A stretch of 64,000 bases of DNA, from the NCBI RefSeq assembly GCF_000026545.1, contig NC_011601.1, one strand, 5' to 3'. The stretch is from Escherichia coli O127:H6 str. E2348/69 (GTDB taxonomy: Bacteria > Pseudomonadota > Gammaproteobacteria > Enterobacterales > Enterobacteriaceae). Shown one piece after another: positions 9,367-60,435 of this stretch. The translations under genes and the position numbers were made by a program. The notes beneath the pieces are model-generated. The model was not told the origin of the DNA. It saw nothing but the letters and a program-made list of their open reading frames with translations, and searched no databases. Numbering within the stretch: the first letter of the stretch is position 1; the number at the start of each line of letters is the position of its first letter.

Positions 9367-9942
9367 AATTTTTCCTGTCTCCAGGCCCCAAAGTAAATAA
9401 TAAAAAATCTCTAAAAATTAAAGAAAAAATATGCCGAATAAATCACCAGCGAATGCTGATTGAAATCAATAAAAATAGCTATTAACACATTGATATTGCT
9501 GTTTTTTATACCTGGATAACAAAATTCATTTTTGTAGTTAATCATTACAAAGCAATGATGTATGCAAAATTGATAAAATATTGAATTGATTTTGTTGGGA
9601 AATTGATAAATTTTTTGTTTAAAGAAACGGGCGTTCATTAACATGGCCCGGCAATACTGGGAATGTTTATTGATTGATTTTTATATTTGTTTAAAAAATA
9701 AGCGCATTTGTGCTTTTATCTATTGTTGTTTGTATTGGAGGAGTGTTCTTTGATTGAGAACGTTTGCGGGCAAAAAAAATCGTTTAAGTTTCCAGAACAA
9801 TCCGATAATATTCCCTCAAAATTGCACCGCATAAATATATAAAACACTCGGATTATTCCTTATATTGGTGCTGTTAAGGTTATGTTTATTTTAAACTGGT
9901 TATGCTAGTCGTGGTTTTTTGATAAATATCTCATGGTTACTA

Positions 9943-49420: not shown

Positions 49421-51367
49421 ATGAATATTTTAGGTTTTTTCCAGCGACTCGGTAGGGCGTTACAGCTCCCTATCGCGGTGCTGCCGGTGGCGGCGCTGTT
49501 GCTGCGATTCGGTCAGCCAGATTTACTTAACGTTGCGTTTATTGCCCAGGCGGGCGGTGCGATTTTTGATAACCTCGCATTAATCTTCGCCATCGGCGTG
49601 GCATCCAGCTGGTCGAAAGACAGCGCAGGTGCGGCGGCACTGGCGGGTGCGGTAGGTTACTTTGTGTTAACCAAAGCGATGGTGACCATCAACCCAGAAA
49701 TTAACATGGGTGTACTGGCGGGTATCATTACCGGTCTGGTTGGTGGCGCAGCCTATAACCGTTGGTCCGATATTAAACTGCCGGACTTCCTGAGCTTCTT
49801 CGGCGGCAAACGCTTTGTGCCGATCGCCACCGGCTTCTTCTGTCTGGTGCTGGCGGCCATTTTTGGTTACGTCTGGCCACCGGTACAGCACGCTATCCAT
49901 GCAGGCGGCGAGTGGATCGTTTCTGCGGGCGCGCTGGGTTCCGGTATCTTTGGTTTCATCAACCGTCTGCTGATCCCAACCGGTCTGCATCAGGTGCTGA
50001 ACACCATCGCCTGGTTCCAGATTGGTGAATTCACCAACGCGGCGGGAACGGTTTTCCACGGTGATATCAACCGCTTCTATGCCGGTGACGGCACCGCGGG
50101 GATGTTCATGTCCGGCTTCTTCCCGATTATGATGTTCGGTCTGCCGGGTGCGGCGCTGGCGATGTACTTCGCAGCACCGAAAGAGCGTCGTCCGATGGTT
50201 GGCGGTATGCTGCTTTCTGTTGCTGTTACTGCGTTCCTGACCGGTGTGACTGAGCCGCTGGAATTCCTGTTCATGTTCCTTGCGCCGCTGCTGTACCTCC
50301 TGCACGCACTGCTGACCGGTATCAGCCTGTTTGTGGCAACGCTGCTGGGTATCCATGCCGGCTTCTCTTTCTCTGCGGGGGCTATCGACTACGCGTTGAT
50401 GTATAACCTGCCGGCCGCCAGCCAGAACGTCTGGATGCTGCTGGTGATGGGTGTTGTCTTCTTCGCTATCTACTTCGTGGTGTTCAGTTTGGTTATCCGC
50501 ATGTTCAACCTGAAAACGCCGGGTCGTGAAGATAAAGAAGACGAGATCGTTACTGAAGAGGCTAACAGCAATACTGAAGAAGGTCTCAATCAACTGGCAA
50601 CCAACTATATTGCTGCGGTTGGCGGTACTGACAACCTGAAAGCCATTGACGCCTGTATTACTCGTCTGCGCCTTACCGTGGTTGACTCAGCTCGCGTCAA
50701 CGATGCGATGTGTAAACGTCTGGGTGCTTCTGGGGTAGTGAAACTGAACAAACAGACTATTCAGGTGATTGTTGGCGCGAAAGCAGAATCCATCGGCGAT
50801 GCGATGAAGAAAGTCGTTGCCCGTGGTCCGGTAGCCGCTGCGTCAGCTGAAGCAACTCCGGCAACTGCCGCGCCTGTAGCAAAACCGCAGGCTGTACCAA
50901 ACGCGGTATCTATCGCGGAGCTGGTATCGCCGATTACCGGGGATGTTGTGGCACTGGATCAGGTTCCTGACGAGGCATTCGCCAGCAAAGCGGTGGGTGA
51001 CGGTGTGGCGGTGAAACCGACGGATAAAATCGTCGTATCACCAGCCGCAGGGACAATCGTGAAAATCTTCAACACCAACCACGCGTTCTGCCTGGAAACC
51101 GAAAAAGGCGCGGAGATCGTCGTCCATATGGGTATCGACACTGTAGCGCTGGAAGGTAAAGGCTTTAAACGTCTGGTGGAAGAGGGCGCGCAGGTAAGCG
51201 CAGGGCAACCGATTCTGGAAATGGATCTGGATTACCTGAACGCTAACGCCCGTTCGATGATTAGCCCGGTGGTTTGCAGCAATATCGACGATTTCAGTGG
51301 CTTGATCATTAAAGCTCAGGGCCATGTTGTGGCGGGTCAAACACCGCTGTATGAAATCAAAAAGTAA
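49421..51367 (+). CDS. nagE: PTS N-acetylglucosamine-specific EIICBA
   Basis: 648-aa ORF: EIIC membrane domain, EIIB cysteine motif (CITRLR), EIIA domain. Confidence 0.9.
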   Translation: MNILGFFQRLGRALQLPIAVLPVAALLLRFGQPDLLNVAFIAQAGGAIFDNLALIFAIGVASSWSKDSAGAAALAGAVGYFVLTKAMVTINPEINMGVLAGIITGLVGGAAYNRWSDIKLPDFLSFFGGKRFVPIATGFFCLVLAAIFGYVWPPVQHAIHAGGEWIVSAGALGSGIFGFINRLLIPTGLHQVLNTIAWFQIGEFTNAAGTVFHGDINRFYAGDGTAGMFMSGFFPIMMFGLPGAALAMYFAAPKERRPMVGGMLLSVAVTAFLTGVTEPLEFLFMFLAPLLYLLHALLTGISLFVATLLGIHAGFSFSAGAIDYALMYNLPAASQNVWMLLVMGVVFFAIYFVVFSLVIRMFNLKTPGREDKEDEIVTEEANSNTEEGLNQLATNYIAAVGGTDNLKAIDACITRLRLTVVDSARVNDAMCKRLGASGVVKLNKQTIQVIVGAKAESIGDAMKKVVARGPVAAASAEATPATAAPVAKPQAVPNAVSIAELVSPITGDVVALDQVPDEAFASKAVGDGVAVKPTDKIVVSPAAGTIVKIFNTNHAFCLETEKGAEIVVHMGIDTVALEGKGFKRLVEEGAQVSAGQPILEMDLDYLNANARSMISPVVCSNIDDFSGLIIKAQGHVVAGQTPLYEIKK

Positions 51368-51455: not shown

Positions 51456-52736
51456 TTACATTGGGAAGATAAAAACAGCGCCTGCACAAAGCGCCAGAAT
51501 GCGGATGAGATACATTGGTACAGAGAACACCCAGAATTCGGGAAGTTTGTATTTCCCCATTCCGAGGATCATGGCTGGCATTCCGTCAATAGGCATATAG
51601 CCGCCGTTCCAGCCTGAAATCACCACCGCAATCGCTGCAGCGGTCGGGTTAAGCCCAAGGCTGGTACAGGCGGCAATGGCGATGGGGGCAAAAATATAAA
51701 CAGACCCCATATTCGAACCCGTGAAGGTGGCGCAGGTACTGGTAAGCAAAGCAAAGGCGACAATAAATACAAATGGTGAGACGCCAGAACCGAGCACACC
51801 TGCAACGGCATCGCCAACCATCGCCGTAAAGCCGGTGCCCGCCAGTGCATCAGCTACACCGATCACCCCCGCCATCATTAAAATGACCGGCGCTCCCATA
51901 TGATCGCGAACTTCTTTAAAGTCCAGTACATCGATCATCAGAACAAACGCACCCGCAAGACCCGGAATAACGAAGGCGATATTTCCCAGAATGTTCATTA
52001 GCATCATGCCGATAACGCTGACAGCGAATGCGGCAATAGTGCAATATTCTTTCCAGGCAGGAAGGGCGTTAAACGTTTCCTCGCGTGCCGCCAGCGCATC
52101 CTCGGAAGCATCCGCAATGGGATGATCCGGAAGAAAACGGTAGGCAATAAGACTCCATGCGAGGAACGCCGCTGACATGATGAGATTCACCAGCGCAAAG
52201 CGCCCCATCGAAATCTCCTGATGAAAACCCGCGGTTTCGAGTACGGTCGCCGTAACGCCAAAGAGAAGCGCGAGATTGATAGGAAGAAGCGGGTGGTTGG
52301 TGGCAAATCCCAGGGGCATCATTAATTTCGATGTTGGTAGCTTTTTACTGTACGGAATGGTGGATACCAGCGACAGAATCAGCACGTAATAACCGGTCGC
52401 GCCGGTGCCTGCAAGACTGGCACCCAGCATAACAATGACTAACAACAGCCCGTAGCTGCGGTAACTGCCTTTATTGACCAGGCTTATCATCGCAGATTTA
52501 ACGTTGCTGATAAGCCGGGTTTTTTGTAGCGCTGCCATGACCACCATAAACCCTGCAATCATCACCACGCTTGGATTGACGAATCCGGCAAAAGCCTGTT
52601 GAACGGTCGAAAGTCCCGAGACAACCAGCAATAAACACGCAAGCAGTGGCGGTGCGCCAAATGGCATTTTGTCCGACATGATCAGCACGATCATCAGGAC
52701 CAGTATTCCTAATGCCAGGATCATTTCCATTGTCAT
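51456..52736 (-). CDS. ion-transporter-superfamily anion permease (putative organic/sugar-acid transporter)
   Basis: ORF-track frame 51456..52982 trimmed to ATG at 52736 (MTMEMILALG...) with RBS aggagaga; ~427-aa polytopic membrane protein; last gene of leftward island operon. Confidence 0.7.
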   Translation of the reverse strand: MTMEMILALGILVLMIVLIMSDKMPFGAPPLLACLLLVVSGLSTVQQAFAGFVNPSVVMIAGFMVVMAALQKTRLISNVKSAMISLVNKGSYRSYGLLLVIVMLGASLAGTGATGYYVLILSLVSTIPYSKKLPTSKLMMPLGFATNHPLLPINLALLFGVTATVLETAGFHQEISMGRFALVNLIMSAAFLAWSLIAYRFLPDHPIADASEDALAAREETFNALPAWKEYCTIAAFAVSVIGMMLMNILGNIAFVIPGLAGAFVLMIDVLDFKEVRDHMGAPVILMMAGVIGVADALAGTGFTAMVGDAVAGVLGSGVSPFVFIVAFALLTSTCATFTGSNMGSVYIFAPIAIAACTSLGLNPTAAAIAVVISGWNGGYMPIDGMPAMILGMGKYKLPEFWVFSVPMYLIRILALCAGAVFIFPM

Positions 52737-52749
52737 TTTTTCTCTCCTT

Positions 52750-53220
52750 TTAGGCTTCCAGCATGTCGCGCGGTACCTTAAAGACCGCTTTGCGTACTGA
52801 CGTAGCCGCGCCAATCGCGCACAGCGCCTGGTGAGGTTCCTCAGGCATAAAGACGGCGAAATCACCGGGGTGTAGAGTGATGGCGACACTGTTTTCAGGG
52901 GATGGGGCGATAAACAGATCGGGCTTACGTTCTTCATCGTTTTCGCGAGCGATGGGCCGCGTTCCCGCATTAATGCCCTCACAACCAGTAATCACCACCT
53001 GGATATCGGCCCACAGATGGTGATACTCCGTATGGCGGAGTTCGGCGGGTTGCGTGTCTGAAGTTCCCAGCGTGCAGAACCACCGACATCCTTCAGGTTG
53101 CCAGCGACCGTCCTCTCTGGCGGATAACGCCGATAACGAACACTCCGGGCACAGCAGAATATTTCTCACCCAGGCGGGAAGCCCCGCCAGCGACAAATGG
53201 TTGAGATTACCGATAATCAT
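52750..53220 (-). CDS. YhcH/YjgK/YiaL-family protein (NanQ-like)
   Basis: 156-aa ORF with PGDFAVFMPEEPH motif resembling E. coli YhcH; ATGA overlap with upstream gene. Confidence 0.75.
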   Translation of the reverse strand: MIIGNLNHLSLAGLPAWVRNILLCPECSLSALSAREDGRWQPEGCRWFCTLGTSDTQPAELRHTEYHHLWADIQVVITGCEGINAGTRPIARENDEERKPDLFIAPSPENSVAITLHPGDFAVFMPEEPHQALCAIGAATSVRKAVFKVPRDMLEA

Positions 53221-54386
53221 GATGCCTGCCCCTTAACCCACTCGGGGGAGATGCGCACGTACTTGATGGCCTGACGCCACCAGGTGTAAGCGATATGTAG
53301 CGTACCGTCCGGGCTTTGTTTGATGCTGGGGTAGGAGAACTCACGATTTAGCTTTTCCAGGGAATTGTTGGTCATGCAGTTGCCGTCGCCTTCATCGAGA
53401 TTGCGCCGCCACGGCCAGCTTTTCCCACCATCGGCAGAAATCGCTACCGTCATCGGCGCGCGTGGGGCCCCCCAGAAAGCGGAGCGTCCGACGGCTGTCG
53501 GTTCTTTGCGGCTGTCGTCGCCATCGTCGATTTCGTCATAAAGCGACGCGCGACGTTCTACTGCGCCTGCCGCACTCATCGCGTTGTACACCAGCGCCAG
53601 TTCGCCGCTGGCAAGCGTCGTTACCTGAATAGACGAATTGTTGTTGGGCAATTCGGTAGCTTGCGGCACCGACCAACTCTCGCCGTTGTCCACTGAATGG
53701 CTGATATAGATGTTGTCTGCCCAACGGCTGCGAAAGAGAGCAACCAACGTACCGTCGTGCAGCATTGTGATATTCATATGAACGCAGCCGAGACTTTGCG
53801 GCACCTCGACATCGCGCCATGAGTGACCACCGTCAGCGGAAATTTTCACTGCGCTGATATCATCATTGCCGACCCATTTTTCGCCGGGTTGGGTACGGCA
53901 ATAAAAGACGGGAAGCAGCCAGTTACCGTTATCAAGCACCGTGATCGGCTGGCGAATGAACGTGCCGGGTTTATCGAGCAGGGTGGCAATCTCGCCCCAG
54001 GTTTGCCCAAGGTCGTCAGACTTACGGTAGCGGACGATGGCCGTGTCCTGATTACCGGATATTTGTGCGGTCCATAGCAGCCACAGCACGTTATCCGGCG
54101 CGAGAAACAGCACCGGGTTTTGCTCTGAACGCGTGTCATCGTGGGAAAGTTTGACCGCATCGCTCCACTGCGTTCTGCCAGCGGGCAATCGTGATCCCCA
54201 GACAGAAATATCGGCAATACCTTCCTGTGTTCCCGCAAACCAGACGCACATTAATGCGCCATCCGGCATTGGCAGAATATTCGCCGCGTGGTTTTGCGGG
54301 CAGGACGAGGGCAGCATGGCGGTAAGCACATGCGAATCGTTTTCGGATGGACGGATGACGCCGTCACGAATAAGGGCTACAGACAT
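53217..54386 (-). CDS. BNR/Asp-box repeat protein, sialidase-fold, no signal peptide
   Basis: 389-aa ORF with four Asp-boxes (SDDLGQTW, SADGGHSW, SVDNGESW, SADGGKSW); N-terminus lacks hydrophobic signal; RBS ggag upstream. Confidence 0.75.
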   Translation of the reverse strand: MSVALIRDGVIRPSENDSHVLTAMLPSSCPQNHAANILPMPDGALMCVWFAGTQEGIADISVWGSRLPAGRTQWSDAVKLSHDDTRSEQNPVLFLAPDNVLWLLWTAQISGNQDTAIVRYRKSDDLGQTWGEIATLLDKPGTFIRQPITVLDNGNWLLPVFYCRTQPGEKWVGNDDISAVKISADGGHSWRDVEVPQSLGCVHMNITMLHDGTLVALFRSRWADNIYISHSVDNGESWSVPQATELPNNNSSIQVTTLASGELALVYNAMSAAGAVERRASLYDEIDDGDDSRKEPTAVGRSAFWGAPRAPMTVAISADGGKSWPWRRNLDEGDGNCMTNNSLEKLNREFSYPSIKQSPDGTLHIAYTWWRQAIKYVRISPEWVKGQAS

Positions 54387-54421
54387 AGTTAGACTCCATC
54401 TTAAAGTTGGTAATAGATTTA

Positions 54422-55180
54422 TTAATGCGAGTGCGATTCATGCGTTTCGATCAATGTCGAAACTTTTTTATTTCTTCTTTCACGGATAATATTGAGTGTC
54501 TCAACACTTAATGAGAAAAATATCGCGAAGTAGAGATACTCTTTGGCAATATGAATGTTGAGACTATCGGCAACCAGCAATACACCGACAAACAATAAAA
54601 AGGTTAACGCCAGTATTTTTATTGACGGCGTGGCGTTAACGAAATCACCAATTGTTTTCGCCGCAAACATCATGACACCGACGGCAATCATTACGGCGGC
54701 AATCATGATAAATATATGCTGAGAAAGGCCGACGGCGGTGATCACCGAATCCAGGCTAAACACGATATCGAGCAGCATTATCTGTACAATGGCACCGCAC
54801 AACGACAGTTGCCGCGATCCGCTGCCATGTTCGTCTTCCTGCGCGGGCGACAGCTCTTCGCGTATCTCCTGTATCGCTTTATAAATCAGGAACAGCCCGC
54901 CCCCGAGCAGAATCAACGTGCGGAACGAAATCTCCAGCGTCAGCACGGTAAAAAGCGGCTGGGTAATATGTGAAAGCCACGCAATGGATATCAGCAATAA
55001 TATCCGCATAATCATCGCGCAGCTTAAACCCAGTTTACGCGCCATATTTTGTTGTGATAACGGAAGTTTTGCCACCACCAGTGAAAGAAAAATAATATTA
55101 TCCACCCCAAGAATAATTTCCAGAAAGGTGAGGGTAATTAAAGTGAGCCAGATATCTGGCTGCATAAACCACAAAAACAT
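54422..55180 (-). CDS. TerC-family integral membrane protein
   Basis: 252-aa polytopic ORF (…TFLEIILGVDNIIFLSLV…); visibly more AT-rich than flanking island genes. Confidence 0.7.
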   Translation of the reverse strand: MFLWFMQPDIWLTLITLTFLEIILGVDNIIFLSLVVAKLPLSQQNMARKLGLSCAMIMRILLLISIAWLSHITQPLFTVLTLEISFRTLILLGGGLFLIYKAIQEIREELSPAQEDEHGSGSRQLSLCGAIVQIMLLDIVFSLDSVITAVGLSQHIFIMIAAVMIAVGVMMFAAKTIGDFVNATPSIKILALTFLLFVGVLLVADSLNIHIAKEYLYFAIFFSLSVETLNIIRERRNKKVSTLIETHESHSH

Positions 55181-55239
55181 GGGGTAATCCTTTATTCTCT
55201 TTATCTAAACTTTATAGCGGGCTGGATAATAGAGTTAAT

Positions 55240-56127
55240 TTAATTAATGTTATAATGACGAATAATTTGTTGAATCTCGCTGATCTGTTCAGGCGTGAAA
55301 TTAACCGCGTAGCGGCTATCACCAACATCATGCCCCATAAGCTGCAACGCTTTTTTCACCGCAGCCGGGGAGAATGCTACTTTATAAAGATCGGTACGCA
55401 GGCCCGTTACACTCTCCTGTGCTTCATAAGACCCTTCAATATCACCGGCATGGAAGCGAGACCAGATGGCATTGATTTCTCGCGGCGCGATGTTGGCGAG
55501 CCCAGAGATACAGGCTGAACATCCCTCGACAAACCCTTTATGGATCAGCGAATCCGGGCCGTTGAGCACATTAAAGCCGTCAATGTCGCGCACCGCATCG
55601 AGAAAACCCTTCAGGCTTTCGTCGCTTCCGGCGCTGTCTTTAATCCCAATGATATTGGGGTGCGACGCCAGAGCACGCGCGGTTTCTGGCTGGATCGTAT
55701 TGCCAGTGCGGGCCGGGATGTTATAGAGAAACATCGGAATGCTCAGTGCGTCGGCAATTGCGCTGTAATGCGCAATCAACTCTTCCTGTTTCAGCGGTAC
55801 GAAGTAAGGGGCAATGACCGACACGGCATCTACGCCAAGTTTTTCAATCTGCTGACCCAGACGAATCGTTTCGCGCGTAGAGATCTCGCCAATGTGTGCC
55901 ACGACCGGCGCACGACCAGCCACTTCATCCACGCAGGTTTGCGTAACGCTGAGCTTCTCCTGTTCATTCAACACAAAAAATTCGCCGTTGGTGCCGCCGC
56001 AAAAAATCGCGTTACCCGCTTCCAGTTGACGATTCACCTGCACTTTTAACGCCGGGATATTCAGACTGCCGGTCGCGGTAAACGGGGTGACGATAGCGGT
56101 TAATACACCTTCAATGGTTTTCGGCAT
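55240..56127 (-). CDS. DapA/NanA-family class I aldolase
   Basis: 295-aa ORF with GTNGEF and Schiff-base lysine context IGIKDS. Confidence 0.8.
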   Translation of the reverse strand: MPKTIEGVLTAIVTPFTATGSLNIPALKVQVNRQLEAGNAIFCGGTNGEFFVLNEQEKLSVTQTCVDEVAGRAPVVAHIGEISTRETIRLGQQIEKLGVDAVSVIAPYFVPLKQEELIAHYSAIADALSIPMFLYNIPARTGNTIQPETARALASHPNIIGIKDSAGSDESLKGFLDAVRDIDGFNVLNGPDSLIHKGFVEGCSACISGLANIAPREINAIWSRFHAGDIEGSYEAQESVTGLRTDLYKVAFSPAAVKKALQLMGHDVGDSRYAVNFTPEQISEIQQIIRHYNIN

Positions 56128-56130
56128 GAT

Positions 56131-57288
56131 TTATTCCTTAAATTGATGTTGCGGAAACAGTGTTTGGTAAATGGCCTGTACGTCCTGTAGATCAAGCTGG
56201 CACGGCACATTGTTCATAAGGCGCTTCACGTTCAGTGCCGCCTCGCTAAGAGAGGCAATATCCTCTGGCGGTACGCCGAGATCTGCGAGATTGTTGGGTA
56301 GCTTGAGTTGATTGACTAATGCCTGTAACCAGGTCACCAGGGCATGAGATTTTTCTTCCGCGCTCAGGGCGGTTTCCGCATCGGGAATGCAATCCCAGAC
56401 CCGGGCAAATTTCTCGACCGCCCAGGGGCGAACAAACGCCATGCACGGCGCCAGCAAGATGGCATTCGCGACGCCATGCGGCAGATGATATTTGCCACCT
56501 AACGGGTAGGAGAGCGCATGAACGAGATGCGTGCCCGCATGGGTTATCGCTACGCCGCCATAGTAAGACGCCCACAGCATTTCCAGTTTTGCGCGCAGAT
56601 CCTGAGGATCGTTCACGGCGGGTTGAATGTGCCGGAAAAGTTTACTTAACCCAGTCAGCGCCGCGTTATCGCTGACCGGATTTGCCACGGTCGCGGTAAA
56701 ACACTCCAGTAAGTGGCAAAGAGCATCAATGCCCGTGGACGCCGCAATATGCGCAGGCATGCTGGTGGTCAGTTCCGGGAAAAGCGCCACATAGTCTGGT
56801 AACAGCATCTGGGAAATAATACCCACCTTCGTGCTTTGCTCAGGGATTGCCAGAATCGCATTCGGCGTGGCTTCTGAGCCGGTTCCGGCGGTTGTAGGAA
56901 TCAACCATGATTGCACCCGCTGAGTTGGTTTTTCACCCGCAAGCAGCGCATCCAGCCCCGGAGATTGTGGATGGCAAAGCACCGATAGCAGCTTTGCCAC
57001 ATCCAACACGCTGCCACCGCCGATCCCGACCACCACATCAAAAGAGGCATCGCCAAGGACATCCATTAGCTGGCGCACATCATGATGCGTGGGCTCTGCG
57101 GGCACATTATCGATAACGTTAACCTGCGGGCAGTGCTGTTCCAGTAAGGCGCGAATCTGCTGCACACCGTCGAGCTGCGCAATATTACGGTCAGTGACCA
57201 GCAGCATTTTTCTGATGTCGGGTAAGAGCGACGTCAGGGAAGGGATAGCGCCTGCGCCGCTCAGTATCGTGCTATTGATAATTACCAC
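56131..57288 (-). CDS. iron-containing alcohol dehydrogenase family oxidoreductase
   Basis: 385-aa ORF, GTG start with RBS gagagg; GGGS motif (GIGGGSVLDVAK) and His-rich metal site (THAGTHLVHALSYPLGGKYHLPHG). Confidence 0.8.
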   Translation of the reverse strand: MVIINSTILSGAGAIPSLTSLLPDIRKMLLVTDRNIAQLDGVQQIRALLEQHCPQVNVIDNVPAEPTHHDVRQLMDVLGDASFDVVVGIGGGSVLDVAKLLSVLCHPQSPGLDALLAGEKPTQRVQSWLIPTTAGTGSEATPNAILAIPEQSTKVGIISQMLLPDYVALFPELTTSMPAHIAASTGIDALCHLLECFTATVANPVSDNAALTGLSKLFRHIQPAVNDPQDLRAKLEMLWASYYGGVAITHAGTHLVHALSYPLGGKYHLPHGVANAILLAPCMAFVRPWAVEKFARVWDCIPDAETALSAEEKSHALVTWLQALVNQLKLPNNLADLGVPPEDIASLSEAALNVKRLMNNVPCQLDLQDVQAIYQTLFPQHQFKE

Positions 57289-57457
57289 AAATAACCTCTC
57301 TTCTGGTGATTGAATTCAATCATTCAAAATGCCGTAGCCTACGTAACATGGTCTAATTTTATAATTTATTCGAGTGATTAATAACTTGAGCTTGCTCACA
57401 TTTAATCAATTGTGATTGAATATAATCATTATTATCATAAAACAACCTGGAGTGATG
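57289..57457. promoter_or_regulatory. divergent promoter/operator region of the island with two 16-bp palindromic sites
   Basis: perfect palindrome tgattgaattcaatca (57306..57321) and 14/16-identical tgattgaatataatca (57413..57428), each just upstream of one operon's first gene. Confidence 0.55.
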
Positions 57458-58693
57458 ATGGAAAAGGGAATCACTAAGCCGAGCATTCTCGTCGTTGCCG
57501 ATGATTTCACGGGAGCCAACGACGCGGGGGTAAGCCTGGCGCAGGTGGGGCATACAGTTGATGTGGCCTTTGAAATGCCTTATCACGGTGATGCCAGCGT
57601 ATGGGTGATTAACAGCGACAGCCGGGCGATGGATCCTAAGCTGGCGGCGATGAAAATAACCTCGCTGATGAGTCATCTCCCTCTGGCGAATAACCCGCCG
57701 CTCGTGATTAAAAAGATAGATTCCACGCTTCGAGGCAATATCGGCGCAGAAATTGAAGCCCTGATGAAGGCATGCGGTATAACGGGCGCAGTGATTGCCC
57801 CCGCATTTCCTCAGGCGGGAAGGACCACAGTGGCCGGTGAGTGTTGGGTAAACGGTGTGCGGATAACGGAAACCGAGTTTGCCAGCGATCCGAAAACCCC
57901 GGTATTGAGCGCCCGAATTGCGGACATCATCCGGTTGCAGACGGCCATTCCATGCCAGCCCGTTACGGTTTCTCAGCTCAGCCATTTGTCTTATGAGCAA
58001 CCGTGGATTGGCGTGATAGATGCGCAGACGGACAGCGACCTGGATCGCATCGCTGCCGCTGTGATGCAGGCTAAACAACCGCTACTGCTGGTCGGCTCCG
58101 CTGGTATTTGTGATGCCGTTGCCCGGCGCTCCGCGATTATGCCGCCACCCACCGTGCTGGCCATTATTGGTTCAATGAGCGAAATCGCTCAACGGCAGAT
58201 CGCCACACTGCATTCACACCCACGTATCACACAGATATACGTCGATGTTGAACACATTCTGGCAGGCAATGCCAGTGACTATGACGCGCGTATTGTGCAG
58301 GCCTTGCAGAAAGGCGACCACTGCATTGTCCACACCTGTAACGATTCTGTAGCAAGGCATCAGATCGACACCCTTTGCCAGCGTTGGCAGATGAGTCGCG
58401 CTGCACTTGGGGAAAAAATTTGTCGGTTTCTTGGCGAACTTACCCGGCAAGTTCTGCTTCGCACAATGCCCGATGCGCTTTATCTCTCTGGTGGCGATGT
58501 CGCAATGGCAACAGCCAGTGCGTTAGGCGCGACCGGGTTTCGTATTACGGGGAAGGTGGCGCAATGCGTTCCATATGGTCACTTTCTGGGCGGCGTCTGG
58601 TCCCGTTCGGTGATGACGAAAGCCGGTGGGTTTGGCGATGAGACCACGTTGCATCAGGTTCTGAATTTTATCGAGGAGAAGCGTAGTGAATAA
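57458..58693 (+). CDS. four-carbon acid-sugar kinase family protein (YgbK/OtnK-like)
   Basis: ORF-track frame from 57416; ATG at 57458 with GGAG 5 nt upstream; ILVVADDFTGANDAG and KKIDSTLRGNIGAE motifs. Confidence 0.8.
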   Translation: MEKGITKPSILVVADDFTGANDAGVSLAQVGHTVDVAFEMPYHGDASVWVINSDSRAMDPKLAAMKITSLMSHLPLANNPPLVIKKIDSTLRGNIGAEIEALMKACGITGAVIAPAFPQAGRTTVAGECWVNGVRITETEFASDPKTPVLSARIADIIRLQTAIPCQPVTVSQLSHLSYEQPWIGVIDAQTDSDLDRIAAAVMQAKQPLLLVGSAGICDAVARRSAIMPPPTVLAIIGSMSEIAQRQIATLHSHPRITQIYVDVEHILAGNASDYDARIVQALQKGDHCIVHTCNDSVARHQIDTLCQRWQMSRAALGEKICRFLGELTRQVLLRTMPDALYLSGGDVAMATASALGATGFRITGKVAQCVPYGHFLGGVWSRSVMTKAGGFGDETTLHQVLNFIEEKRSE

Positions 58694-59672
58694 CATTATT
58701 GCGGTAACGATGGGCGATCCGGCGGGTATTGGCCCGGAGATCATTATTAAATCCCTGAGCGAAGCCGGGCTTGCTGGTACCCCGGTGGTGGTGGTGGGCT
58801 GTGTGCGCACGCTGCGACGTATTATGGCGATGAATATCACGCCGCAGGCAGAGTTACGCGTCATTCAAAAGGTGTGCGACGCCCACTTTGCTCCCGGCGT
58901 GATTAACGTGATGGATGAGCCTCTGGCTAACCCCGATGCGCTGACACCTGGTGTGGTACAGGCTGCGGCAGGCGATTTAGCGTATCGCTGTATCAAACGT
59001 GCAACGGCCCTGGCCTTATCAGGCGAGGTGAAAGCCATAGCCACTGCGCCGTTGAATAAAGAAGCGCTGCATCTTGGCGGGCATAACTATCCGGGGCATA
59101 CGGAATTGCTGGCCCATCTTACCGGCAGCAAAGAGTACGCGATGGTGCTCTATACCGATAAGCTCAAGGTTATCCATATTTCGACTCACATCTCACTGCG
59201 TAAATTCCTGGATACTTTGAATGGTGAAAGGGTCAAAACGGTTATTCGAGTTGCGAACCACTTCCTGAAACGTGTCGGCATTGAGCGTCCGCGTATTGCC
59301 GTGGCGGGTGTAAATCCACATGCAGGGGAACACGGTTTATTCGGCACTGAGGAAATCGAGATTATCGCACCTGCGATTGAAGCAATGCAGGCCGAAGATA
59401 TTGATGTTACTGGCCCGTGCCCGCCAGATACCGTGTTCATGCAGTGCCATGAAGGGCTATTCGATATGGTGGTGGCTATGTACCATGATCAGGGGCATAT
59501 CCCTTTAAAACTGCTTGGATTTTATGATGGGGTGAATATCACCGCCGGGTTGCCATTTATTCGCACTTCTGCCGACCACGGCACCGCGTTTGATATTGCC
59601 TGGACAGGAAAAGCCAAGTCTGAGAGCATGGCAGTTTCCATCCAGTTAGCAATGCAGATTTCGCGAGAATAA
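58686..59672 (+). CDS. PdxA-family NAD-dependent dehydrogenase (PdxA2-like)
   Basis: 328-aa ORF, GTG start overlapping kinase stop by 8 bp; [14 protein letters not shown] and NPHAGE...YHDQG...[18 protein letters not shown] motifs. Confidence 0.8.
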
Positions 59673-59673
59673 A

Positions 59674-60435
59674 ATGAAGGGATATAACCGGTTAGAGCAG
59701 ATCATGGATTACCTGAAAAGCCATAATCTGGTCACCGTTGATGAGCTGGTGGCGGTAACCAATGCGTCGCCGGCTACGATTCGTCGAGACCTGATAAAAC
59801 TCGATGAGCAGGGTGTTATCAGCCGTACACACGGCGGTGTGACCCTCAACCGGTTTATTCCTACCCAACCGACTACCCATGAGAAAATGCAGCGCAGCCT
59901 GGCGGAAAAACATGCTATCGCCAGCGCAGCGGCGTCAATGGTCAAAGCGGGGGATTCCGTCGTCCTTGATGCCGGTACGACAATGATTGAACTTGCGCGG
60001 CAGATTACACATTTACCGCTTCGCGTGATCACCAGCGACCTGCATATCGCGCTTTTTTTGGCTGAATTCAAGCAAATTGAAGTGACGATTATCGGCGGAC
60101 GTATCGACGACTCCAGCCAGTCCTGCATTGGCGAACATGGTCGTAAATTGCTGCAAAATACCTGGCCGGACGTGGCATTTTTAAGCTGTAACAGCTGGGA
60201 TCTTGAAAAGGGTATTACAGCACCCACGGAAGAGAAAGCCGCACTAAAACGCGATCTTATCGCGCATGCTTCGCGCAAAATTCTCCTGGCTGACAGCTCA
60301 AAATACGGTTCATGGTCGCTGTTTAATATCGCGCATCTTAATGAACTGACAGAGATTATTACGGATAGTCAGCTTGATGGGCAGACGCGTAGAACGCTTG
60401 CGTCCTTGTCGACGCGTTTAATCATAGCCGACTAA
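59674..60435 (+). CDS. DeoR-family transcriptional regulator
   Basis: 253-aa ORF; N-terminal HTH (…[21 protein letters not shown]…), C-terminal sugar-phosphate-binding domain. Confidence 0.8.

Follow-up and report, generated by a model that had tools for sequence, protein, structure and literature searches.

In the deoCABD control region of Escherichia coli K-12, the sequences TGTTAGAATTCTAACA and TGTTAGAATACTAACA, verified upstream of deoC at a distance of 599 bp from each other, are the DeoR operators deoO1 and deoO2. These operators coincide in part with −10 regions and act cooperatively, an oligomeric repressor forming a loop between them; those DeoR-family proteins that have been characterised are mostly tetramers or octamers, not simple dimers. 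Two palindromes in the spacer between the divergent Fe-ADH and dtnK-pdxA2-deoR operons of E. coli E2348/69 are similar to the deo operators in being 16 bp long, in combining one perfect with one centrally altered copy and in occurring as a multiple set within one control region, and the half-sites of both systems share T1, G2, T4, G6, A7 and A8. On the other hand, the palindromes described here are 106 bp and not 599 bp apart, are placed between two divergent operons and belong to predicted D-threonate/sugar-acid catabolism, while the deo operators belong to nucleoside catabolism.

With respect to its layout, the spacer also resembles two control regions of other regulator families, which is a functional analogy and not a matter of family membership. 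In the nagE-nagBACD region, as reportedly worked out by Plumbridge and Kolb, two NagC operators overlap or flank the divergent promoters, a CRP site is located in between, and repression involves a DNA loop of about 100 bp. The present sites, 106 bp apart, likewise flank a CRP-like site, although NagC is a ROK-family protein with another motif, and looping and the role of CRP, said to be demonstrated for nag, are here inferred from the arrangement. The malX-malI region is said, after Lloyd et al. in 2008, to possess a single CRP site at −41.5 from both divergent starts, which are about 85 bp apart, with a local repressor in control of both. At the present locus the transcription starts, which are only predicted, would be about 82 bp apart with the centre of the CRP-like site about 41 bp from each; MalI, in contrast, is a LacI-family protein.

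Concerning the gene content, a close described system is that of Brucella VdtR, a DeoR-type repressor in a DUF1537 cluster which represses its own operon, binds several sites at the promoter region of that operon and is not released by free acid sugars; a downstream intermediate is suspected as the effector (PMC10580937). In both cases, the gene of a DeoR-family regulator is part of a cluster for four-carbon acid sugars with a DUF1537 kinase, the VdtR cluster being that for erythronate/L-threonate. However, the VdtR pathway consists of OtnK, LtnD and DenD and not of DtnK and PdxA2, the host belongs to a different phylum-level lineage, the genes form a single operon and not a divergent pair, and the VdtR operator sequence is undefined in that study (PMC10580937). 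The K-12 YgbI-ygbJK tetronate cluster similarly combines a DeoR-family regulator with an adjacent DUF1537-kinase operon for four-carbon acid sugars, but the present regulator reaches only 168 bits against the YgbI equivalog cut-off of 400 and is 32.5% identical to YgbI (PMC12928451).

Both palindromes are part of a nine-gene island between nagE and glnS of E. coli E2348/69, analysed in a window of 64,000 nucleotides to which all coordinates given without a locus name refer. The island is chromosomal in 1048 of 5426 complete E. coli genomes, about a fifth, and is the region designated ‘GR 6 nagE..glnS’ in a comparative study from 2026, where it is common to ExPEC model strains, its ORFs are classed as uncharacterised, regulatory data are absent and the DUF1537/PdxA2 gene pair is ascribed to pyridoxal-phosphate synthesis (PMC12928451). 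This pair rather points to catabolism, since both NCBIfam D-threonate equivalog models pass their cut-off, NF047819 for dtnK with 533 bits (cut-off 450) and NF002891 for the PdxA2-type dehydrogenase with 680 bits (cut-off 583). The genes of the island are as follows.

51456..57288, minus strand, leftward operon of six genes (annotation and NCBIfam), listed singly in the next six lines
51456-52736, minus strand, DASS/SLC13 anion permease
52750-53220, minus strand, NanQ/YiaL-type anomerase
53217-54386, minus strand, BNR/sialidase-fold protein
54422-55180, minus strand, TerC-family protein
55240-56127, minus strand, DHDPS/NanA-type lyase
56131-57288, minus strand, Fe-ADH, GTG start at 57288
57458..58693, plus strand, dtnK, D-threonate kinase of the DUF1537 family, ATG at 57458 (NCBIfam NF047819, RefSeq annotation)
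58686..59672, plus strand, D-threonate 4-phosphate dehydrogenase of the PdxA2 type (NCBIfam NF002891, annotation)
59674..60435, plus strand, DeoR/GlpR-family regulator, last gene of the rightward operon (RefSeq annotation, Pfam)

The regulator gene starts after a gap of 1 nt from pdxA2. Across genera, the constant members of the leftward operon are Fe-ADH and the lyase only; its other genes vary. The palindromes are located within the 169-bp spacer (57289-57457, 30% G+C) that separates Fe-ADH from dtnK-pdxA2-deoR.

57307..57322, no strand, site 1, proposed operator O-left, perfect 16-bp palindrome TGATTGAATTCAATCA (sequence and alignment)
57413..57428, no strand, site 2, proposed operator O-right, TGATTGAATATAATCA (sequence and alignment)

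The original prediction had placed a perfect palindrome at 57306..57321 and a near-copy, identical in 14 of 16 bases, at 57413..57428 about 30 bp before the kinase start. The perfect palindrome exists, but its coordinates were one base off; position and match count of the near-copy are exact, and its end is 29 nt from the dtnK ATG (57458). The end of site 1 is 18 nt from the Fe-ADH GTG (57288), with the Shine-Dalgarno sequence adjoining the site. The repeat formed by the two sites stretches to 19 nt, GTGATTGAAnnnAATCATT, and their centres are 106 bp apart. While about 0.7% of shuffles of the 169-bp spacer at matched composition yield a perfect 16-bp palindrome, a palindrome together with a second copy of at most two mismatches was found in one of 200,000 mononucleotide shuffles and in none of 200,000 Markov-1 simulations; chance is excluded as the origin of the pair.

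Within the 64-kb window, the exact core TGATT-N6-AATCA is restricted to sites 1 and 2, and four matches with up to three mismatches to site 1 are present versus 0.49 expected. The sequence TGATTGAAATCAATAA at 9457-9472, in the pagP-dcuC spacer about 90 bp upstream of dcuC and with two mismatches to site 1, is probably a chance match because the C that is invariant in AATCA is missing from it and dcuC belongs to the core genes. The dcuC product is a C4-dicarboxylate carrier. Another probable chance match, TGGCTGAATTCAAGCA at 60059-60074 in the regulator coding sequence, has three mismatches and neither the TGATT nor the AATCA arm. Further perfect 16-bp palindromes of the window are TTGGTGAATTCACCAA (50022-50037, in nagE) and AGCCAGATATCTGGCT (55146-55161, in the TerC-family gene).

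When one genome per species was scanned with the regulator protein, 53 loci were obtained, in 48 of which, from other Enterobacterales genera and Vibrio litoralis, the divergent layout of Fe-ADH and dtnK-pdxA2-deoR is kept. Both sites recur at fixed positions in nearly all of these 48 loci; in all, the palindromes are shared by about 50 bacterial species. A footprint alignment of 49 distinct orthologous spacers resolves sharply bounded conserved blocks, separated by sequence that drifts freely, with the following mean information content.

57307-57322, site 1, 1.53 bits per column
57323-57352, spacer, 0.52 bits per column
57353-57369, block TTTATAATTTA, 1.56 bits per column
57385-57400, CRP-like segment, 1.79 bits per column
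57401-57412, segment next to site 2, 1.58 bits per column
57413-57428, site 2, 1.96 bits per column
57429-57446, spacer, 0.64 bits per column

Site 2 is identical in 46 of the 49 distinct spacers. In site 1, TGATT and the terminal TCA are each present in 48-49 of 49, positions 12-13 being AA or GC, and in many genera the right arm has decayed from AATCA to GCTCA. Among five E. coli alleles, the single change inside a site affects one central base of site 1; the remaining substitutions are located just beside the sites or in the spacer. The distance between the centres is 103, 104, 105 and 106 bp in 9, 9, 19 and 11 loci respectively, and 92 bp in Vibrio. Since the right arm decays and one Klebsiella lineage has lost site 1, the left site seems dispensable or weaker. 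A −10 hexamer embedded in site 2 could account for the invariance of this site as much as a repressor does. The Klebsiella lineage is Klebsiella sp. BIGb0407 (L025, 7612-7803), which carries GGATGGATTACGCCCT in place of site 1 and a slightly altered site 2, TGATTCAATATAATCA.

The motif is also specific. The cognate spacers, 9.2 kb in total, contain TGATT-N6-AATCA 72 times, versus twice in the other 1.0 Mb of locus DNA, and both outside matches form a tandem pair with a distance of 18 bp in Actinobacillus porcinus, where 0.09 are expected. Recurrence at many unrelated loci, which the original prediction had named as evidence against itself, is not observed in the DNA searched. The Actinobacillus pair precedes an operon that also encodes an orthologue of the regulator (66% identical). 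The genes of this operon are, in order, those of a truncated DUF1537 fragment, a PdxA-type dehydrogenase, a KdgT-like carrier and a DUF1537 kinase, a gene of unknown function, and those of the regulator orthologue and a second carrier; Fe-ADH and lyase are missing from it, and on the leftward side it is adjoined by housekeeping genes. The presence of the motif at such a differently built operon indicates that it tracks the module of regulator, kinase and dehydrogenase and no single promoter. In Vibrio litoralis, with an orthologue of 68% identity, two exact core matches are present in the homologous spacer versus 0.05 expected. Altogether, the motif accompanies the regulator in three architectures. 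The recognition-helix segment, (A/S)SPAT(I/V)RRDLI(K/Q)LD, shows hardly any variation across all of the motif-sharing orthologues, whereas a 42% identical paralogue has another sequence there.

In the A. porcinus locus (L053, 5030-5083 and 5142-5396), the tandem sites are followed by a near-consensus CRP site, and the first reading frame past the sites is the DUF1537 N-terminal fragment, which stops after 81 codons, with the full-length kinase encoded further downstream. A match with one mismatch at position 19284 of locus L039 lies within an ORF and was set aside as an outlier. The motif can be traced as far as Vibrio and Actinobacillus. Of the more distant relatives of the regulator, one with 57% identity is encoded on a 1.2-kb contig without context, and the one with 42% identity has an unrelated neighbourhood without a DUF1537 kinase. 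Citrobacter sp. 18056 (L050, 10001-10558) retains only a regulator fragment, residues 59-242 with 72% identity and without the HTH region, which is probably a remnant; dtnK/pdxA2 neighbours and a nearby motif were not found for this fragment.

The regulator itself combines an N-terminal HTH_DeoR domain (PF08220) with a C-terminal, sugar-phosphate-binding DeoRC domain (PF00455), as assigned by Pfam to the identical protein. It is matched over its full length by the AgaR, GlpR, YgbI, SrlR and DeoR models of NCBIfam, the best hits being AgaR, GlpR and YgbI, and none of these equivalog cut-offs, nor those for UlaR and FucR, is reached: besides the score for YgbI given above, the bits are 172 for AgaR (cut-off 260), 140 for SrlR (350) and 83 for DeoR (244). 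By these scores the protein is neither DeoR nor another characterised member of the family. Its orthologue group is narrow, with the identity of full-length hits in a library of representatives at 50% identity dropping from 57% to 40-43%, and among solved structures only 7l6l, the C-terminal domain of a deoxyribose operon repressor, is matched (E = 6e-9).

Besides the palindromes, the spacer contains candidate promoter elements and a further conserved segment.

57353..57369, minus strand, conserved block CTAATTTTATAATTTAT with candidate −10 TATAAA (57363-57358) of the Fe-ADH operon, predicted start near 57351
57385..57400, minus strand, CRP-like site TGTGAGCAAGCTCAAG, 8 of 10 positions of TGTGA-N6-TCACA, centre at 57392.5 (sequence, alignment)
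57403..57409, no strand, conserved TAATCAA with isolated AATCA half-site at 57404-57408 (alignment)
57421..57426, plus strand, candidate −10 TATAAT of the dtnK-pdxA2-deoR promoter, within site 2 (sequence, predicted start near 57433)

The perfect TATAAT arises from the two bases that break the symmetry of site 2, is invariant in Enterobacterales and, judged from the sequence, represents the strongest candidate for a −10 element of dtnK. On the opposite strand, the TATAAA at 57363-57358, in a block flanked by unconserved sequence, leads to a predicted leftward start near 57351. With this start, site 1 would occupy about +29 to +44, 5 nt from the Shine-Dalgarno sequence. The original prediction had site 1 upstream of the Fe-ADH start; the site is probably located inside the leftward leader beside the ribosome-binding site and not upstream of the leftward promoter. 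For neither of the −10 hexamers is a −35 partner recognisable. The sole hit of a promoter scan, TTGTGA-17-TATCAT, was not adopted as the main dtnK promoter because it is unconserved outside Escherichia.

The centre of the CRP-like site would be about 41.5 and 40.5 bp from the two predicted starts, the −10 hexamers being assigned by eye, and a distance of about 41 bp would correspond to class II geometry, with CRP as the putative ligand. In the CRP-like site, the central 6 bp show the same degree of conservation as the half-sites, even in Vibrio, and, as an extra AATCA half-site is added, CRP alone may not explain the block. The TAATCAA may belong to a weak third site at 57393-57408 (11 of 16 positions), 20 bp from site 2, a spacing comparable to the 18 bp of the Actinobacillus tandem sites. 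The whole conserved block between the palindromes, 57385-57409, reads TTGA-n-CTTGCTCACAT-n-TAATCAA. In Actinobacillus a near-consensus CRP site, TGTGACGAAGATCACG, is located beside the two sites.

The proposal that both palindromes are shared operators of the adjacent DeoR-family regulator is supported by conservation across 48 loci, by the specificity of the motif and by its co-occurrence with the regulator. We consider it probable, at roughly three in four, that they are operators of the DeoR/GlpR-family repressor encoded last in the rightward operon. In the mechanism that we infer, the repressor without inducer would sit on site 2 and cover the TATAAT of the dtnK-pdxA2-deoR promoter, so that initiation would be blocked, while on site 1, at about +29 to +44 of the Fe-ADH leader, it would block elongation or promoter escape as a roadblock or loop anchor. 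As its gene is the last one of the right operon, the repressor would autoregulate. One oligomer may bridge both sites and loop out both core promoters together with the central CRP-like site, which is plausible as 106 bp are about ten helical turns. Strict helical phasing seems not to be kept, since distances among Enterobacterales, although close to ten turns, differ by up to 3 bp, and the 92 bp of Vibrio are out of phase; with this play, and with one Klebsiella lineage lacking site 1, a loop would not be needed everywhere. As inducer, an intermediate of the pathway is probable, with 4-phospho-D-threonate, the product of DtnK, as the most plausible one; family precedent and Brucella VdtR make a phosphorylated inducer likely. 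The presence of a conserved CRP-like site in the same spacer means that the repressor is probably not the sole input; located midway between the predicted starts, this site would add catabolite control to both promoters. The regulation would then probably be conventional, with a local DeoR-family repressor, paired operators and CRP control alongside.

Binding by the same regulator might alternatively serve activation or dual regulation, in line with some DeoR-family members that activate, such as FucR, which is among the NCBIfam hits of the regulator, and with the Actinobacillus tandem sites, which are located upstream of the CRP site and the −10 region in a typical activator position. In Enterobacterales, however, site 2 covers the −10 hexamer and site 1 is situated past the likely leftward promoter, both classic positions for a repressor, the top-scoring families AgaR, GlpR, YgbI and SrlR are annotated as repressors, and the Brucella analogue VdtR is a repressor as well, so activation is improbable.

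Similarly low is the probability that the palindromes are core promoter elements or sites of a global factor such as CRP or Fur instead of local DeoR-type operators. Features that recall such elements are present: the perfect TATAAT within site 2, a GTGA-N6-TCAA in and beside site 1 that loosely resembles a CRP half-site arrangement, the sequence ATAATCATTAT in and past site 2 of E. coli, which recalls part of a Fur box, and the separate conserved CRP-like site in the same spacer. However, site 1 has the same arms without a −10-like hexamer, the Fur-like flank is unconserved outside Escherichia, and it is the outer TGATT and AATCA/TCA that are conserved, which are not the positions read by CRP or Fur. 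A global motif should moreover recur, but this one is absent from 1 Mb of other DNA that includes many promoters and follows the regulator into the differently organised Actinobacillus operon, where a distinct canonical CRP site is found beside it. By consensus, readings of the palindromes as Cra, LacI/GalR-type, Fur or CRP sites were rejected, as the outer TGATT/AATCA arms are conserved while the central bases vary.

Least probable is that site 1 acts as RNA, forming a hairpin in the leader of the Fe-ADH transcript to control translation or stability, with site 2 only a promoter. With a start near 57351, site 1 would be transcribed, 5 nt from the Shine-Dalgarno sequence, and an isolated 31-nt segment folds at −6.7 kcal/mol (z = −2.6). 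However, the palindrome by itself accounts for this hairpin, the leader as a whole folds like shuffled sequence (z = −0.12), an Rfam match is absent at E up to 1, the same sequence occurs also at site 2 and, in Actinobacillus, upstream of the promoter, and among 20 distinct variants of site 1 the change of AA to GC at positions 12-13 of the right arm is uncompensated by the invariant left arm, these one-sided changes breaking or weakening pairs 4-13 and 5-12 in many species.

Tentatively, and with odds clearly against it, the operator pair might switch an undescribed catabolic route for a C7 dicarboxylic ulosonic acid, for example 3-deoxy-D-lyxo-heptulosaric acid (Dha) of the pectin rhamnogalacturonan II. 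Such a route would start with uptake by the anion carrier and handling of the substrate by the sialidase-fold protein and the NanQ-type anomerase, upon which the NanA/DHDPS-type lyase would release pyruvate and a four-carbon aldehyde-acid. Fe-ADH would reduce the latter to D-threonate, to be converted by DtnK and the PdxA2-type dehydrogenase into DHAP and CO2, while the repressor would sense 4-phospho-D-threonate. The D-threo product would follow from the lyxo configuration of Dha at C5 and C6, according to our stereochemical reasoning. If true, the Dha route would explain where D-threonate comes from physiologically and what an island enriched in ExPEC/B2 E. coli does.

A literature search found neither a regulatory or pathway study of this dtnK locus nor one on heptulosaric acid catabolism, and the sequence comparisons support TGATT-N6-AATCA as a previously undescribed motif and putative operator of an uncharacterised DeoR-family regulator. 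Together with the assigned regulator and the promoter model, the motif offers experimental handles on an uncharacterised ExPEC-associated island: removal of the repressor or mutation of the sites should switch the island on, which would be the quickest route to its substrate and to any role in gut or extraintestinal fitness.

Concerning the sialidase-fold protein, a search of solved structures gave no match. The leftward operon exists in three versions that differ in their organic-anion carriers (L005, 1781-7680; L014, 1798-7604; window, 51456-57288). The version of Citrobacter combines a 2-hydroxyacid dehydrogenase with an ACS-type MFS carrier and is without the sialidase, that of Enterobacter has sodium:solute symporter, sialidase-fold, YiaL and SDR genes, and that of E. 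coli, Klebsiella and Kluyvera has TerC, sialidase-fold, YiaL and DASS genes.
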